Positions 26,226 through 37,381 of a stretch of 64,000 bases of DNA are shown piece by piece (positions within the stretch are counted from its first letter, which is position 1; each line of letters begins with the position of its first letter). The notes under the pieces were generated by a model. That model had not been told where the DNA came from, made no database searches, and saw only the letters and a program-made list of their open reading frames with translations. The translations under genes and the position numbers were made by a program. Source of the stretch: Caldimicrobium sp. (GTDB lineage Bacteria > Desulfobacterota > Thermodesulfobacteria > Thermodesulfobacteriales > Thermodesulfobacteriaceae); NCBI GenBank assembly GCA_025059715.1, contig JANXCE010000008.1, positions 488 to 64,487 on the forward strand, in the 5' to 3' direction.

Positions 26226-27038
26226 ATGGAGTCCCTTCATAGAGTTAGGGGTTTTGAGAAGATTGTGGAACCCATTAGATTAACACCTCAATCTAAATTT
26301 GTTTTTCAGTGTTATCCCGGAGTTCCCTGTTTTAAACTGTGTTGTTCTGACCTTTATCTTCCACTTACTCCCTTCGATATAATTAGAATCAGAAACTTTC
26401 TTAACCTGGACACTGAGAGTTTCTTACTTTTGTATACCGAGCCCTTTAAACTTCCTAAATCTGAATTACCAATTGTATGTCTTAAAATGAGAGAAGATTT
26501 AGAGAAGACTTGTCCCTTCCTTGGAGAGGGAGGATGCACTATTTATGAAGTAAGACCTCTTGCTTGTAGGTATTATCCCTTAGGGTTTGGGCTCTTCAGA
26601 AATAGAGATGAGGGGAAAAACGAAGAATTCTATTACTTAGTAAAAGAGGGATTTTGTCAGGGGTTGGATTCCGGCAAAGAGATAACTGTAGAGGAATATC
26701 GGATTTCTCAGGGTATTCCAGACTCAGAAGAGCCTATCCTTGAGTGGGCGGAAATCATCATGAAAAAGGAATCCCTTGGTCCTATAGAAGTTCCAGAAAA
26801 AAGTTTAGAACTCTTCTTTATGGTCTCTACTAATCCTGAAAGATTTAGAGCCTTTATCTTTGAATCCAAATTTTTAGATATCTTTGAGGTCCCTCAAGAT
26901 CTCTTAGAAGAAATAAGGAATGACGATTTAGCACTATTGCAGTTTGGTTTTAGATGGCTTAAAACGGTTCTCTTTGGTGAAAACCTGGTCAAGAAAAAAA
27001 AGGATGCTCCATCAGTAAAAAAAGCTAAACCCTTTTAA
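26226..27038 (+). CDS. YkgJ-family Cys-cluster (Zn/Fe-chelating) protein
   Basis: CYPGVPCFKLCC, CPFL, GCTIYEVRPLACRYYP, FCQG; GAGGAG precedes ATG 26226; TTGGTA-N17-TATAAT at 26160-26188. Confidence 0.85.
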   Translation: MESLHRVRGFEKIVEPIRLTPQSKFVFQCYPGVPCFKLCCSDLYLPLTPFDIIRIRNFLNLDTESFLLLYTEPFKLPKSELPIVCLKMREDLEKTCPFLGEGGCTIYEVRPLACRYYPLGFGLFRNRDEGKNEEFYYLVKEGFCQGLDSGKEITVEEYRISQGIPDSEEPILEWAEIIMKKESLGPIEVPEKSLELFFMVSTNPERFRAFIFESKFLDIFEVPQDLLEEIRNDDLALLQFGFRWLKTVLFGENLVKKKKDAPSVKKAKPF

Positions 27039-27922
27039 AGGGAGACTCTTTGAAAGAATTGTAAAAACCTTTCACAAAGGGGAGTAAATACCCTTTGTTT
27101 TCTATAGACTAAGAAAAAGTTTCTTGTAATTTTGAGATTCTTTATTGATATGATCTTTAGGGCCTGAGAGGATATTTCCAGTTCAATAGCTCTCTTAGAG
27201 ACAAAGGAGAGGCCTAAGCCTTCCATAACCGCTCTTTTTACTGCCTCCGTTGAGCCCATCTCCCCTACAAAGTTTAAGCTTTTAAGTTCTATATGGGCAT
27301 TTTCGAGATAATGAGTGACTGTTTTCCATGTCCCTGAACCTTCTTCCCTCCTTATTAAAGGTAATTCATAAAGGGTGTTTAATTCTATTTCCCTTAAGGG
27401 AAAATCTTTCGGAGCAATAAGTACAATCTCATCTTCACACCAGGCTTCAAAGTTAAGATGGTCCTCTTTCATCTTCGCTCCTACTATTCCAAATTCCAAA
27501 CTACCCTCGAGAACTTCCTCTACTATTTCCCTTGTATCACCAACTATTAGATAGACCATGGTTTCTGGATAGCTCTCCTTAAAGAGTTTAATTACCTTTG
27601 GTAAGATATATTGCCCTGGAATGGTGCTTCCTCCAATTTCGAGAACACCCTTTTTTTCCTCTCTATATGGGAAAAGCTCCTTCTCCATATCTTTCAGAAG
27701 TTGAAGGATTTGCTTTCCATAGTGATAAACTATTTTACCTGCCTTGCTTGGGAGAACTGTTCTCGTAGAACGATCAAAGAGTTTTACCCCAAGGAAGGTT
27801 TCCAAATCCTTAATATGGGTAGTAACAGTGGGTTGGGATATATATAGTGATTTAGCAGTTTTAGAAAAACTCTTGGTTTCATAAAGTTTTATAAAGACTT
27901 CAAGTTTTCGCTGGTCAAACAC
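27035..27922 (-). CDS. LysR-family regulator (CysL/selenium-metabolism-associated type)
   Basis: HTH SFSKTAKSLYISQPTVTTHIKDLE, LFDRS, GGSTIPGQY, RREEGSGT, STEAVKRAV. Confidence 0.93.
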   Translation of the reverse strand: MFDQRKLEVFIKLYETKSFSKTAKSLYISQPTVTTHIKDLETFLGVKLFDRSTRTVLPSKAGKIVYHYGKQILQLLKDMEKELFPYREEKKGVLEIGGSTIPGQYILPKVIKLFKESYPETMVYLIVGDTREIVEEVLEGSLEFGIVGAKMKEDHLNFEAWCEDEIVLIAPKDFPLREIELNTLYELPLIRREEGSGTWKTVTHYLENAHIELKSLNFVGEMGSTEAVKRAVMEGLGLSFVSKRAIELEISSQALKIISIKNLKITRNFFLVYRKQRVFTPLCERFLQFFQRVSL

Positions 27923-27958: not shown

Positions 27959-27986
27959 TTTATAAAAATTTATTTAAATTTGTCAA
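27959..27986 (-). promoter_or_regulatory. Candidate sigma70 promoter TTGACA-N16-TATAAA for the LysR gene
   Basis: Minus-strand hexamers at 27986-27981 and 27964-27959. Confidence 0.6.
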
Positions 27987-27991
27987 TAAAT

Positions 27992-28345
27992 TATATGAGT
28001 CTATATGATTTTGAACGGAGAGGAATTCTCGTCAAATTTATAATAAATTCACTCCAAAGGTGATGCATCTCCAAGATCACTTTGCTCCCTCTCCGCGTTA
28101 TACCATATCAAATACCTCATAGGCTCCCTATGCTCAATGACCTCCTCCTCCAAAGTCCTGTTAAACTTCTCTACATACCCATTCCCTCCCTCTTAAATTT
28201 TCCCCTCAACCTCACCTAAAAACTTAACTCCCATGTTCGTTTTGATAAACCCCTTATCTCAAAAAAGTTACATCTTTAAATTTCCTCCAAGAATCAATCC
28301 CACTTTCGCTGAATCAATAACCATACCCGTAGTAGTCTAAAGGCG
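27992..28345 (-). mobile_element. IS481-like remnant copy 1 (3' part of DDE domain plus right end)
   Basis: Frameshifted NGYVE.FNRTLEEE, MRYLIWYN; end TATATGAGTCTATATGATTTT resembles the ends of copies 2 and 3. Confidence 0.8.
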
Positions 28346-28454
28346 ACTTCTTTTCTATAGGATGTATCTTTTGCTTAAAGTTTTCACTGTAGATATGCAC
28401 CACCCTTATACTGATAAAGAGAGCACAAAAAACAATACTAAAAGGTGCTTTTGA

Positions 28455-28721
28455 TTAGGTTTCATTGACTCTATACCCAAATTGTTGGATTACTTCCATG
28501 GGGTTTGAAGTAAGAACAAGCTCTTTGAGAAGCCTCTTAAGTTTATCTCGGTCAGTTTCTGCCTTGATCTGCTCCTCAAGACCTTTTGGCACTCTCCCAA
28601 GCTTTACCTCCACCACCTCAAGCACCATCTCTTGAGCCTCCCTTAAGAGGCCCTGCTGTAACCCCTGCTGTATACCCTCTAAGTAAAAGGGGTCCCTACT
28701 CTTATCAATCACTAATGGCAT
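28455..28721 (-). CDS. Putative internally initiated C-terminal product (RpnS-like antitoxin, 88 aa)
   Basis: In-frame ATG at 28721 preceded at 7-nt spacing by AGGAGGT (28735-28729). Confidence 0.65.
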   Translation of the reverse strand: MPLVIDKSRDPFYLEGIQQGLQQGLLREAQEMVLEVVEVKLGRVPKGLEEQIKAETDRDKLKRLLKELVLTSNPMEVIQQFGYRVNET

Positions 28722-29315
28722 CTTCGTTACCTCCTCATATAGTCTTACTACTTCATTATAAGCATCCTTCCTCAGTCTTGCAAGCACTAAAAGCTTCATC
28801 AAAAAATCCCTTCTCTTTCCCTCCTCCAGCCTCTCAACCCGCTCCCTTAGCCTATCCCAAAAGTCCCTCTCCCTCTTACACAGAATAGCGAGCAACTGGT
28901 CCTCCTCCACCTCACTCTCAAGTAGCTCCCTACAACTAATCTTCCTCAGCTCCACAACCTTAACTCGGTGCTGAAGTCTTCCCAAACGATACCTTGTTCT
29001 ATAGGGACACTTCTTGTCTCCTACCCAAAGTAAAACCTGTAAAGGATATGCTCCGTATCTCTCGTAAATCCTTAAGTAAAGCTCAATAAGCCTTAGTGGC
29101 AAAGTGGGATCATAGGTGCTCTGAATTTCAAGATGAATAAGGGTGCCATTTTCAAGTCTTCCTACGAAGTCTGCCTTTCTTTCTTTGGTTGTGGGGAAGG
29201 TGCTTTCAAGGACTTCTGAGACCTTGGAGCCAAAGAGGATTTGAATGATCTTGAGAGGGAGCCTTTGTAGAACTTCTCTTAAGGTTCGGTCAAAGGGAAA
29301 GGAGGGCTGGGACAT
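28455..29315 (-). CDS. Rpn/YhgA-like PD-(D/E)XK nuclease family protein
   Basis: FDRTLRE, ERKADFV, IHLEIQS, LPLRL nuclease core; C-terminal EGIQQGLQQGL and helical DUF4351-like tail. Confidence 0.8.
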   Translation of the reverse strand: MSQPSFPFDRTLREVLQRLPLKIIQILFGSKVSEVLESTFPTTKERKADFVGRLENGTLIHLEIQSTYDPTLPLRLIELYLRIYERYGAYPLQVLLWVGDKKCPYRTRYRLGRLQHRVKVVELRKISCRELLESEVEEDQLLAILCKRERDFWDRLRERVERLEEGKRRDFLMKLLVLARLRKDAYNEVVRLYEEVTKMPLVIDKSRDPFYLEGIQQGLQQGLLREAQEMVLEVVEVKLGRVPKGLEEQIKAETDRDKLKRLLKELVLTSNPMEVIQQFGYRVNET

Positions 29316-29361
29316 GAAGATATTTTAGTATGTGTTTTGGGAATAGGCAATTTTTTGAGTG

Positions 29362-29466
29362 AAAGGGGATTGAAGCGGGGCGGTCCCTTTTTCAGCAAAT
29401 CCCTTTGAAGCGGGTCGGGTTGCCTTTTCCCCATGCAATCCCCTTTGAAGCGGGGCAGGTTGCAAC
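29362..29466 (-). CRISPR. Orphan degenerate CRISPR repeat cluster: one near-complete repeat, two decayed copies, no real spacers
   Basis: GTTGCAACCTGCCCCGCTTCAAAGGGGATTGCA (29466-29434); GCAACCCGACCCGCTTCAAAGGGATTTGC (29423-29395); ACCGCCCCGCTTCAA (29384-29370); CCCC/GGGG hairpin and GTTGCAA...AAGGGGATTG ends resemble type III-associated repeats. Confidence 0.65.
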
Positions 29467-29644
29467 ACCCCTAACCCCATACAAGCCTCATCAATCAATC
29501 CTTGTGATTGTTTAGAACAAACTATATTTTGCAAATTGACCCTCTGAAAGCCTCTATCCATCAGATCCAGCCGATGGTTGGAAATTAATCATAAAATCGT
29601 ATACTTTATATAGTTTTACGCAATTTCCTATTTTCTCTTGTCAA
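29467..29644 (-). promoter_or_regulatory. CRISPR-leader-like AT-rich non-coding region with candidate promoter TTGCGT-N16-TACGAT
   Basis: Abuts the 5' end of the best-conserved repeat; hexamers at 29623-29618 and 29601-29596. Confidence 0.5.
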
Positions 29645-29689
29645 AGATCGCAATACTTATTATTAAGTATAACCCATTTCTCAAAAAAG

Positions 29690-30590
29690 TGTATAAGTCC
29701 ATATGATTTTAGACTGAGGGGAATTCTCATCAAATTTGTAACAAATCCACTCCAAAGGCGATACATTCCCAAGACCACTATGCACCCTCTCCGTATTATA
29801 CCATATCAAATACCTCATAAGCACCCGGTTAAACTCCTCCAAATCATCCTTCAACATCCACTCCCTATACTCAATAAACTCCTCCTCCAATGTCCTGTTA
29901 AACCTCTCTACATACCCACTCCCTCTGGGATTCTAAGGATAATTAAAATAGTGCTCCAGTTTCTCCCTCTCAAGCTCCTTTGCAAATTTTTCTGAAAATT
30001 CACTCCCTTAGTCTTTCTCCACGTTCCTTATCTCAAAATCTCAAAAGGAGCTATCGCCTTCCTCTTTATATGCAAATCCAAATCTAAGGGAAACCGTAAA
30101 TGTTTAGAGGGTAGGGCATAGGTAGAATTCTAACGATATTTTCTTATTATGTCAACCACAAAGGACTACTCTTCATTGCCAATTCCAAACATACTAACTT
30201 CTTGCCCTCAATAAACTAACCCTCTTCACATAATGGCTAAGACCAATACTTTATGTTCCCTCCAATAGTTGAGACAAACACCAAAGGAGACAAACACTAA
30301 AGCTATGCCCCCCTCTCACAAAGTCAATTTACTAAGAGTTTAAGCCTCTACTTGCAAAAATATTCTCTCGTGTAATCCAGAACAAACTCTATTACCTCAT
30401 TCGCCACCTCTTTGAGCATTTCCTTTTTAGTAAACCATGCCCTCAGTGCCCATAGAGTTGTGAAAATTCGATGCCCCCTTAGTCTAAGAGCGAGCTCTCC
30501 TCTTTGGGATGCATCTTTGATTGCTTTAAGTCTTTGCGGTTTTTTAAGTCTTTGATGAGAGATGGGGTTAGTGAGAGGCTAAAAAGACCT
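29690..30590 (-). mobile_element. IS481-like remnant copy 2
   Basis: End TGTATAAGTCCATATG; intact C-terminal fragment 29681-29890 (FNRVLMRYLIWYNTERVHSGLG); 30360-30590 is homologous to 37490-37750. Confidence 0.85.
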
Positions 30591-30613
30591 GGGAGTTTTG
30601 CATTTTTTAAATT

Positions 30614-31366
30614 TCAGGTAGGGAACCTCGTTAAGAAAGAAAAGAGAGACATCAGGGATATTGAAGCGGTCTCAGCTCGAAGGATAAAGGGAGAGAGATT
30701 AAGAGAGAGAAAACCGCTTTTACTTGCAAGTTCAAGTTCCTCTGCACTTAAATCTCCCTCTGGACCCGAAAGGAGATAAATTTCCTTAGGTTTTTGCTTT
30801 AACTCCTCTAAAATTGAACCTAGCGCAGTTTTTCCGGTAGGATGGGCCAAAATTTTAAAAGTGGAAGTCTCCCTTAAGCTGAGGAGAAGCTCTGTAAGAG
30901 ATGGAGCAAAGTCTATTTGAGGGAAAATTAGCCTTCCTGATTGTTTGAGGGCATTTAGGGCTTTCTCTCTCAGCCTTTCCATTTTGATTTTAGTTATTTG
31001 GGGTAAGGTATGTTTGGATTGATAGACAATAAATTTACTAATACCCAATTCAGTCCCCTTCTCTATGAGGAACTCCGTTTTATCTCCCTTTAATACTGGG
31101 ATTAGGGCTGTTAAACTAACCTCTGGGAGTTCCTCAGATCTCACCAAATCTAAGAGTTTTATCTGAACTCTATATTCTCCCCTTTCTCTTAGAATCCTTA
31201 GAATCTCCGCTAAAAATTCCTTACCCTTTCCGTCAATTACAGTTATTCTCTCCCCTACCCTTTTTCTTAAAACCTTGACTACATGTGCTCCTTCTGTCGG
31301 AGGAAGCCAACCTTGCTCTCCCTTAAAATCAAAATAAAATCTTTGCCCTCCCCTCATGTTATACAT
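30614..31366 (-). CDS. rsmE: 16S rRNA m3U1498 methyltransferase
   Basis: HVVKVLRK, EKGTELGI, LKQSGR, SGPEGDLS, ILRAETA. Confidence 0.93.
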   Translation of the reverse strand: MYNMRGGQRFYFDFKGEQGWLPPTEGAHVVKVLRKRVGERITVIDGKGKEFLAEILRILRERGEYRVQIKLLDLVRSEELPEVSLTALIPVLKGDKTEFLIEKGTELGISKFIVYQSKHTLPQITKIKMERLREKALNALKQSGRLIFPQIDFAPSLTELLLSLRETSTFKILAHPTGKTALGSILEELKQKPKEIYLLSGPEGDLSAEELELASKSGFLSLNLSPFILRAETASISLMSLFSFLTRFPT

Positions 31367-36762: not shown

Positions 36763-37381
36763 CTTTTACCTTCCCCAAGTTTTTATAAAGATAGAGAATT
36801 CTCTGTAGAAGGGATAAAGCGGTTAATATGGTAATTAATTTTATACCATAGTTTAAACCCAAAGGAAGGTGGCTTTTTTCAAAAATAGTAAAAATAATAA
36901 GAGTAAGATGGGTCTCGGGGCGCCCAAAGAATCCAAGGCCCTCCATGGGATCCCTTATCTTGCCATTGATCTTTGCTTCAAAACCTACTTCCGCATAAAC
37001 TACAGGTTTTACAAAGGAATGAAGCATAGAGAGGGTGACCACAAAGGTAGCCCAGGCAGGACCTGCATAGATGTAACCTATAATTCCTAATATCAGGCCA
37101 TCTACCCACTTATCCACTAACCAATCATATACCGCACCAAATTTAGTGGGATGGTCCCGAAAACGAGCCACTTCACCATCCAAGAGGTCTAAAAGTCCTG
37201 ATAATAGAAGGAGAAAAACCCCTGTTAGTAAATTTCCATAATAATAAGCTAAAGCAGAGGCAGAGCCAAAAATAAGAGAGAGTGAAGTAATAGTGTTGGG
37301 AGTGAATCTTAGCTTGAATAAAAAATAGGCAAAGGGATGATAGAACCTTCTAATTGATTCTCTTTTAGCAGTAAGGTTCAT
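36755..37381 (-). CDS. CDP-alcohol phosphatidyltransferase
   Basis: DLLDGEVAR...GAVYDWLVDKWVD signature; likely start ATG 37381. Confidence 0.88.
   Translation of the reverse strand: MNLTAKRESIRRFYHPFAYFLFKLRFTPNTITSLSLIFGSASALAYYYGNLLTGVFLLLLSGLLDLLDGEVARFRDHPTKFGAVYDWLVDKWVDGLILGIIGYIYAGPAWATFVVTLSMLHSFVKPVVYAEVGFEAKINGKIRDPMEGLGFFGRPETHLTLIIFTIFEKSHLPLGLNYGIKLITILTALSLLQRILYLYKNLGKVKDD

Follow-up and report, generated by a model that had tools for sequence, protein, structure and literature searches.

Do CRISPR repeats that stand directly in front of a toxin-like gene regulate that gene, or are the two no more than neighbours? The question is raised by a locus around positions 29313 to 29689 of a 64,000-nucleotide (nt) window from Caldimicrobium sp. 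(GenBank assembly GCA_025059715.1, contig JANXCE010000008.1, positions 488 to 64,487 of the forward strand), where a CRISPR leader and three repeats without spacers precede an open reading frame (ORF) that resembles the Rpn nucleases. A preliminary description of this DNA, made from the sequence alone, had proposed that the repeats form the 5' untranslated region of the nuclease message and act as a Cas6-gated toxin switch or as an RNA decoy, and it named a collapsed dead array as the simpler alternative. That alternative proved close to the evidence. In our analysis, the locus is probably a spacer-less array cassette that was duplicated together with an Rpn-like toxin/antitoxin gene, the two being neighbours by block copying. 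All coordinates given without a contig are positions in the window, and the locus is read on the minus strand. The genome, a short-read metagenome-assembled genome (MAG) of 80 contigs and 1.84 Mb rated 99.6% complete, is called G000; G001, G003, G008, G009 and G011 are sister species, and contigs are given as C with a number.

On the minus strand, from 29689 to 29313, an AT-rich leader of ~220 nt is followed by one intact repeat (R1), a linker, a decayed repeat (R'), a second linker, a half repeat (R'') and the ORF, whose ATG lies at 29315. The features are as follows.

29467-29689, minus strand: CRISPR leader of about 220 nt, delimited by blastn of the genome; its final ~95 nt are common to every copy
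29434-29466, minus strand: R1, GTTGCAACCTGCCCCGCTTCAAAGGGGATTGCA, the sole intact repeat at the locus, with a single exact site in the window and the 3' end of a terminal repeat
29424-29433, minus strand: linker TGGGGAAAAG, 10 nt, between R1 and R'
29395-29423, minus strand: R', GCAACCCGACCCGCTTCAAAGGGATTTGC, a decayed repeat with 86% identity to R1 across 29 nt
Between R' and R'', minus strand: linker TGAAAAAGG, purine-rich
29365-29387, minus strand: R'', GGGACCGCCCCGCTTCAATCCCC, a half repeat with its 5' half kept and its 3' half swapped for TCCCC...; its core, TTGAAGCGGGGCGG, is the third copy of the repeat search
29322-29350, minus strand: predicted sigma-70-type promoter, TTGCCT-17 nt-TAAAAT-6 nt-ATG, from a promoter scan (9/12 matches)
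28455-29315, minus strand: type A Rpn-like gene, 286 amino acids (aa); N-terminal domain putatively PD-(D/E)XK-like and divergent, C-terminal domain RpnS-like and carrying 4-aa repeats
28455-28721, minus strand: predicted internal RpnS-like product, 88 aa, starting at M199, from sequence reading and alignment

The leader, R1, the two decayed copies and the purine-rich linkers of 7-10 nt are thus arranged before the ORF as the preliminary description had it. A repeat search of the window recovered two 29-nt copies that are 86% identical, as well as a 14-nt core that occurs three times at intervals of 35 and 40 nt, and Tandem Repeats Finder reported a period of 40 with 2.4 copies (score 105). 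A start-to-start spacing of 40 and 35 nt leaves linkers of 7-10 nt, and unique spacers of ~30-40 nt are absent at the window locus. An exact match to R1 occurs once in the window, where 100 shuffles give an expectation of 0. Its 3' end reads ATTGCA-TG, the terminal-repeat form, rather than ATTGCGAC, which fits an array that collapsed by recombination between its first and last repeats and would equally fit a block copied with just its terminal repeat. The window leader (29681-29700) is also without ~10 nt (CCCTCTTGAC) right after the end of the insertion sequence (IS) that abuts it, compared with the leaders of C17, C21, C29 and G009. In those leaders, this stretch provides TTGACT, the -35 box of what may be a distal leader promoter (TTGACT-16/17-TATATT), so the window array may be transcribed less well than its paralogues.

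The window repeat belongs to a genuine CRISPR family of this genome. The 19-nt core of R1 occurs 35 times in the genome, against 0 occurrences of a reversed control. Mapping with mismatches, in which each site was read, gave GTTGCAACCCGCCCCGCTTCAAAGGGGATTGCGAC as the consensus of the family-1 arrays, with a period of 71-74 nt, and R1 differs at 2 positions from this consensus as found in the arrays of C15, C17, C21 and C29. Together with those on C13 and C4, these arrays hold 16 unique spacers in total. In Rfam, R1 has a weak match to CRISPR-DR10 (20 bits, under the gathering score). The genome has three CRISPR repeat families, and two of them have arrays of 17-46 repeats on small contigs (C49, C51, C62, C58, C59 and others). 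One family-1 array, at C21:22155-23057, has a second spacer that continues directly into ~800 nt of non-array DNA, within which a 39-nt segment (C21:22577-22615) matches exactly a spacer of the G009 C30 array. This junction looks like an assembly join of the array with a mobile element that the array targets, and the match shows that a co-occurring element is among the targets of family-1 spacers.

A canonical array of the same family and a Cas6, whose presence elsewhere in the genome the preliminary description had named as a check, are both present. Besides the family-1 arrays, an intact cas6 lies on C56 (TIGR01877, 6e-24), C50 has another copy, broken by a stop codon, and C40 carries a type III-B (Cmr) operon whose 941-aa Cmr2/Cas10 has GGDD and whose neighbours are of the Cmr3 and RAMP types. 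A search of G000 for cas1 (PF01867) gave no match in the assembly, and the adaptation genes may lie within assembly gaps. The statement that no cas gene occurs in the 64 kb agrees with our searches for cas6, cas1 and cmr2, none of which has a match on the window's 65-kb contig, although not every other cas family was scanned. A weak cmr2 match on C80 was considered as a second cas10 and rejected, being a GGDEF-type cyclase.

A Cas6-type hairpin is retained by R1 alone and is lost in R' and R''. The consensus repeat forms the canonical hairpin with a minimum free energy of -13.5 kcal/mol, and R1 forms the canonical two-step, Cas6-type hairpin at -11.0 kcal/mol. For R', the value is -7.3 kcal/mol in a different, non-canonical fold that is not better than its shuffles (z = -0.13), and for R'' it is -3.8 kcal/mol with an unpaired centroid. 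The full repeat stretch has no excess of structure over shuffles (z = 0.07).

These results bear directly on the proposed switch, in which leader transcripts run through the repeats into rpn and Cas6 cuts at R1 or R' set the stability or translation of the message, which would then report on CRISPR status. Several parts of the locus agree with it: rpn has the same orientation as the leader and the repeats, and the stretch from 28300 to 30300 has no predicted intrinsic terminator, as had been said before; Cas6 and Cmr are encoded in the genome; the hairpin of R1 is kept; and the internal start of the gene has a strong Shine-Dalgarno sequence while the main start has none. A speculative variant fits the anatomy better, in that read-through would feed mainly the RpnS antitoxin, and the toxin would gain the upper hand once CRISPR transcription was lost. 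Against any such design stand the unstructured and variable R' and R'' and the sequence between R'' and the gene. The distance from R'' to the ATG is 46-49 nt, so that the 46 nt of the preliminary description stand as a distance but not as an empty untranslated stretch, since a conserved promoter sits there. The -10 box of this promoter contains a TAA that is an in-frame stop of the long ORF, which makes 29315 the first possible start, and the ORF has no Shine-Dalgarno sequence. Because the -10 box ends 6 nt before the ATG and no Shine-Dalgarno sequence is present, a leaderless mRNA is predicted that would start at the ATG, after the repeats.

Conservation points to the same promoter. When the upstream regions of 8 type A genes, taken from two species, are aligned, the block from -42 to -1 proves near-invariant, the repeat-less copies on C50 and C20 included, whereas R' is whole in some and 5 nt short, mutated or missing in others. 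Ten repeat-less copies keep the promoter block, and their homology to the repeat-linked copies begins at the -35 box. Genes of a second subfamily in this genome, here called type B, have the equivalent TTGCCT-17-TATACT-6-ATG. Since the promoter is near-invariant and R' and R'' are variable and have lost the hairpin, the constraint lies on the promoter and not on the repeats. We therefore do not retain the view of the repeats as the 5' untranslated region of a Cas6-gated toxin or as a decoy: the gene keeps what would be its own promoter in copies without repeats, the hairpins of R' and R'' are lost, and the number of copies varies.

The window locus is one of many of its kind. A blastn search with the leader found 15 further copies in G000, with 74-94% identity and each immediately 5' of a family-1 repeat, as well as copies in the sister species G009, G001 and G003, so that in total ~16 loci in G000 have the leader, the repeat or repeats and the spacer-less trailer. 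These cassettes share a layout. The leader precedes one or more repeats, which hold from zero to at least seven spacers; next come one to three decaying copies, linked without spacers by purine-rich ATTGCA-TGRGRAAA sequences, and a gene lies downstream. In 13 cassettes the sequence on the trailer side can be read, and an Rpn-like gene comes next in 11 of them: five have a type A gene (C79, C7, C4, C29 and a diverged one on C1) and six a type B gene (C33, C13, C27, C41, C6 and C23), and in the remaining two (C10 and C15) the trailer is followed by unrelated sequence. The adjacency of repeats and rpn therefore extends beyond this locus, as the proposed switch would have it, recurring at 11 loci in G000 and in a second species, G009. 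At C10:11150-11400 and at C15:36600-36860, a conserved sequence of ~300 nt replaces rpn after the trailer and leads into a small ORF (MNGVEALTQSEFKEW...); this sequence also occurs in G009, on C55.

The junctions themselves suggest how this adjacency arose. Every type A junction is one and the same hybrid, the 5' half of the repeat being fused to TCTCCCTTCAG..., as shown in C7, C4, C29 and G009 C53/C30, and the type B junctions are all identical to each other. Two founding events followed by block copying are thus enough to account for the 11 linked copies. Elsewhere, the gene and the repeats occur apart. At least 21 Rpn-like copies in G000 have a visible 5' end (8 type A and 13 type B), and 10 of these 21, about half, have no repeats upstream. 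Where the repeats are present, they need not be spacer-less: the same type A gene stands behind full arrays of 3 to 7 spacers in C29 and G009 C30, which argues against a special single-site design. A narrower type A alignment gave four loci. Two MAGs, one of Desulfobulbus and one of Campylobacterales, contain type A homologues (37-38% identity) that have no repeats upstream, so the linkage is absent in distant homologues.

The trailers, in turn, occur without the gene. In G001 (C1:1052800-1055914, about 2040-2250 within the locus), an ordinary array of seven spacers ends in eight tandem units of ~22 nt, each composed of AAAGGGATTGCA, the last 12 nt of the repeat, and a purine-rich 10-mer, and the next gene is not Rpn-like. 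This trailer is a minisatellite made from the part of the repeat that forms the 5' handle of the CRISPR RNA (crRNA). In G011, an array ends in the form R-linker-R, again with a downstream gene that is not Rpn-like. Spacer-less 40-nt units are also found in the middle of the G000 C15 array (36969-37081) and directly after the leader in G009 C38 (1630-1760 within the locus), followed in both cases by normal spacers; this would require either recombination between arrays or the addition of spacers behind such units. As identical trailers occur in arrays without rpn, the spacer-less trailer belongs to the arrays and not to the gene. Unequal recombination between R-linker-R' copies could expand or contract the number of units, and the variable copy number fits such a step.

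A coupling of repeat and gene through base pairing finds no more support. The 16 family-1 spacers include no match to rpn or to its promoter, and neither spacers nor linkers provide guide-like complementarity to the gene. The nearest model for a guide would be CreTA, in which a crRNA-like antitoxin RNA together with Cascade reportedly represses a toxin gene (Li et al. 2021). CreTA is like the window in having degenerate repeats beside a toxin-type gene; its CreA, however, is reported to be encoded within a type I cas operon, to carry a spacer-like stretch with complementarity to the promoter of the toxin and to work through Cascade binding. The window has linkers of 7-10 nt, no complementarity to rpn and no cas gene nearby, and its presumed cognate effector is of type III-B. 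A CreTA-like guide was rejected on these grounds, with no self-targeting among the 16 family-1 spacers and no cas6, cas1 or cmr2 on the contig. The preliminary description had presented the coupling of a CRISPR repeat with rpn as new; we infer that there is none, since the same trailers end arrays without rpn and no guide to rpn was found among spacers and linkers. With the promoter and the repeat-less copies also against it, and the recurrence of the adjacency in G000 and G009 in its favour, we judge the Cas6-gated message distinctly improbable.

How, then, did the cassette and the gene come to lie in this place? Both are part of a block that separates two genes which are neighbours elsewhere.

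27960-30608, no strand assigned: whole inserted block, between lysR (27035-27922) and rsmE (30614-31366)
29690-30608, minus strand: degraded copy of an rve-family IS, whose 3' end (...TGGACTTATACA) abuts the leader, from genome-wide blastn
29681-29890, minus strand: 69-aa remnant ORF of the IS, with rve_3 at 3.5e-7
27960-28387, minus strand: internally deleted fragment of the same IS, in the orientation of the upstream copy, which closes the block, from blastn

The gap between rsmE and lysR measures 70-93 nt in five sister species (G001, G003, G008, G009 and G011) and 2,691 nt in G000. The adjacency of the two genes in all five indicates that the block in the window is an insertion, with the empty site preserved elsewhere. 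The IS stretch upstream of the leader is repeated on dozens of contigs, most of the blastn matches stopping at 29690, and within the window 29925-29676 matches 28188-27978. The 3' end of the IS has 78 matches on 39 contigs, and only a single open frame of more than 200 aa (C11) occurs genome-wide. Many of the copies are internally deleted pieces of ~310-410 nt that resemble miniature inverted-repeat transposable elements. A composite transposon was considered for the block and rejected: both flanking IS copies are fragments, the genome has one transposase frame of more than 200 aa, and no target duplication was identified.

The cassettes have also moved, or have been kept alike, between species. 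Between G000 and G009, their DNA is 82-95% identical, whereas the neighbouring lysR and rsmE are 68-73% identical. Cassettes that are closer between the two species than the flanking genes must have been exchanged or homogenised, and the comparison suggests recent exchange between co-occurring Caldimicrobium species.

This pattern gives some room to a second explanation, in which the Rpn-like nuclease acts on the arrays at the DNA level, either moving or recombining leader-repeat cassettes or inserting preferentially at repeat DNA, and so spreads array 'seeds' within and between genomes. It would explain why 11 of the 13 visible trailers precede an Rpn-like gene from one of two subfamilies, why a type B gene lies beside a family-2 array on C78, why five sister species lack the block at this site, and why the cassettes are more similar between species than the genes around them. 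Rpn-like genes have, moreover, been noted beside a nuclease-dead Cas12a and a type I-E system without Cas3 (10.1101/2021.08.16.456562). Yet the IS fragments that flank the block, with 78 end copies in the genome, offer a simpler route by homologous recombination or IS-mediated rearrangement, and two founding junctions suffice for the 11 linked copies. The rpn genes are regarded as not autonomously mobile (Zhong et al., PMC10400941), and no terminal repeats or target duplications of the block were found. A synteny test of the C7 block gave no information, as its flanking genes are not neighbours in the sister species. Taken together, we consider movement by the Rpn-like protein unlikely; if true, new CRISPR arrays could be planted by this route at fresh positions in the chromosome.

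Two further loci combine the same components. At C78:1-500, the type B rpn-like gene adjoins the family-2 array (GTTTTAGCCGCCAAATGTGAGATTGAAAG, on the opposite strand), and an IS end is fused directly to what seems a hybrid between two promoters, the leader-distal one and that of rpn (CTCTTGTCATTTAAAAAGATTTCCCTTATACTT). At C50:1-3033, the end of an IS remnant is followed by the cas6 copy with the TAA stop and by two tandem type A rpn-like copies, so that IS, cas and rpn are interleaved.

The insertion also bears on the decoy proposal, in which the spacer-less repeats would be an RNA anti-CRISPR (Racr) carried by a selfish block and absorbing Cas6 or Cmr subunits. Camara-Wilpert and colleagues reportedly described Racrs in 2023 as RNA anti-CRISPRs that consist of solitary repeat units and are carried by phages and plasmids. 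The likeness is that the window, too, has repeats without spacers on DNA that has moved, here an inserted block flanked by IS fragments, and that Racrs are solitary repeats on mobile elements. There are also differences: the window cassette has the full canonical leader and a chromosomal position, its sister cassettes carry real spacers, and the block is without phage or plasmid genes. Furthermore, ordinary chromosomal arrays of G001 and G011 finish in the same trailers, and only one of the three copies in the window is still able to fold. A decoy is, in our estimate, scarcely credible.

The gene had been taken for an Rpn nuclease, and it is a putative nuclease-type gene, Rpn-like by its C-terminal domain and a weak N-terminal motif; a Pfam or NCBIfam match is what it lacks, the type A protein giving none even at E <= 10. 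A type B paralogue matches PF04754 (Transposase_31, YhgA/Rpn) at 2.4e-29, and the C-terminal 65-70 aa of type A are 70-90% identical to the C-termini of type B (PF04754) proteins in the same genome. A profile comparison of type A with type B by hhalign gave a probability of 99.8% and placed ADF...IHLEIQS of type A (motif ADFVGRLENGTLIHLEIQS) opposite the D...LLEHKS core of type B. One homologue, P0009, matches PDDEXK_2 at E = 0.037, and the close homologues are 'hypothetical proteins' in hot-spring MAGs. The AlphaFold2 (AF2) model, with a predicted local distance difference test (pLDDT) score of 74, has a beta-sheet core followed by helices; in a Foldseek comparison with the PDB, its top matches were short and local, to the PD-(D/E)XK nucleases EndoMS/NucS, Can2, Card1 and BamHI, none of them significant (best E-value 0.27). 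Sequence searches of the PDB with the family profile and the C-terminal domain returned CutA and designed armadillo repeats, which were dismissed as chance or low-complexity matches.

The C-terminal part suggests a gene within the gene. M199 is invariant in the alignment of homologues and is preceded, with an 8-nt gap, by GGAGG (28734-28730). The 4-aa repeats of the C-terminal domain are GIQQ and GLQQ, with GRLE in paralogues, and their number varies between homologues. They begin 15 residues after M199, within the range given for RpnS, in which the 4-aa repeats start 8-20 residues after the RpnS methionine (Zhong et al. 2023, PMC10400941). We accordingly call the gene Rpn-like: it has the C-terminal features of the family, and weak matches point to the N-terminal nuclease domain. 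It would be a divergent gene-within-gene system, with the long product a putative PD-(D/E)XK toxin and the short C-terminal product a putative antitoxin.

In the RpnL/RpnS systems (PMC10400941; Kingston et al. 2017, PMC5350276), a C-terminal domain of the three-helix type and variable 4-aa repeats after an internal methionine with a Shine-Dalgarno sequence are likewise found. The window gene also shares with them the N-terminal D...E-x-Q-S motif, the presence in multiple copies and a place among defence elements. It differs in that its N-terminal domain falls under all Pfam and NCBIfam thresholds and its match to the PD-(D/E)XK fold is non-significant, and the toxin and antitoxin roles are putative. 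The rpn genes are known residents of defence islands (PMC10400941), some of them beside CRISPR systems (10.1101/2021.08.16.456562). The loci of Rybarski et al. 2021 (10.1101/2021.08.16.456562) likewise link an Rpn-family gene to CRISPR components and raise the idea of a shared mobile unit; those loci, however, have effector genes and self-targeting arrays, whereas the window has just a leader and type III-associated repeats.

For the repeats, the closest counterparts are orphan or degenerate arrays. Mini-arrays near type III loci have been judged to be degraded, non-functional repeats (Shmakov et al. 2023, 10.1101/2023.03.03.530964). Such arrays resemble the window in their conserved leader, a repeat of a functional family, decay toward the trailer, and the lack of nearby cas genes and of a detectable target. 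The window differs from them in being without any spacers, in conserved linkers of 7-10 nt that form units of 35-40 nt recurring across species, and in the ~16 copies of its cassette. A collapsed or empty array and a divergent Rpn-like gene are, each taken separately, both of known kinds.

On this basis, we propose that the locus would be a CRISPR array without spacers, composed of a conserved leader, one intact repeat of terminal form and the degenerate, spacer-less trailer that is usual for this repeat family of Caldimicrobium. An ancestral junction between an array trailer and rpn would have spread to many sites by block copying that took IS fragments along, the rsmE-lysR spacer being one such site. 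The rpn-like gene would be transcribed from its own promoter, with an mRNA starting at the ATG, and any leader transcript would be cut by Cas6 after R1, giving guide-less 40-nt RNAs without a target.

Several points weigh against this account of an array and a gene joined by block copying. First, the promoter at the ATG is predicted, from a match to 9 of the 12 consensus positions, and the lack of a predicted terminator between the leader and rpn means that read-through transcripts carrying R1 may exist. Second, the number of 40-nt units could be mis-assembled in a short-read MAG of 80 contigs. Third, the similarity of the cassettes between G000 and G009 exceeds that of their flanks, as if the block had been exchanged or homogenised by some further process. 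Finally, two Rpn subfamilies at array trailers and a third copy beside the family-2 array on C78 amount to more association than one accident predicts.

At the stated strength, this locus is what array decay and block duplication ordinarily produce; it reveals no new regulatory circuit. The picture of CRISPR repeats in the 5' untranslated region of a toxin could be resolved from genomes alone, through the promoter kept in repeat-less copies, the trailers that occur without the gene, and the empty site. The analysis raises two questions for this family of repeats, namely the origin of the conserved spacer-less trailer units of 35-40 nt and the cause of a cross-species similarity of the cassettes above that of their surroundings. 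It also documents how, in one Caldimicrobium genome, dozens of IS fragments are interspersed with ~16 small arrays and at least 21 Rpn-like genes.

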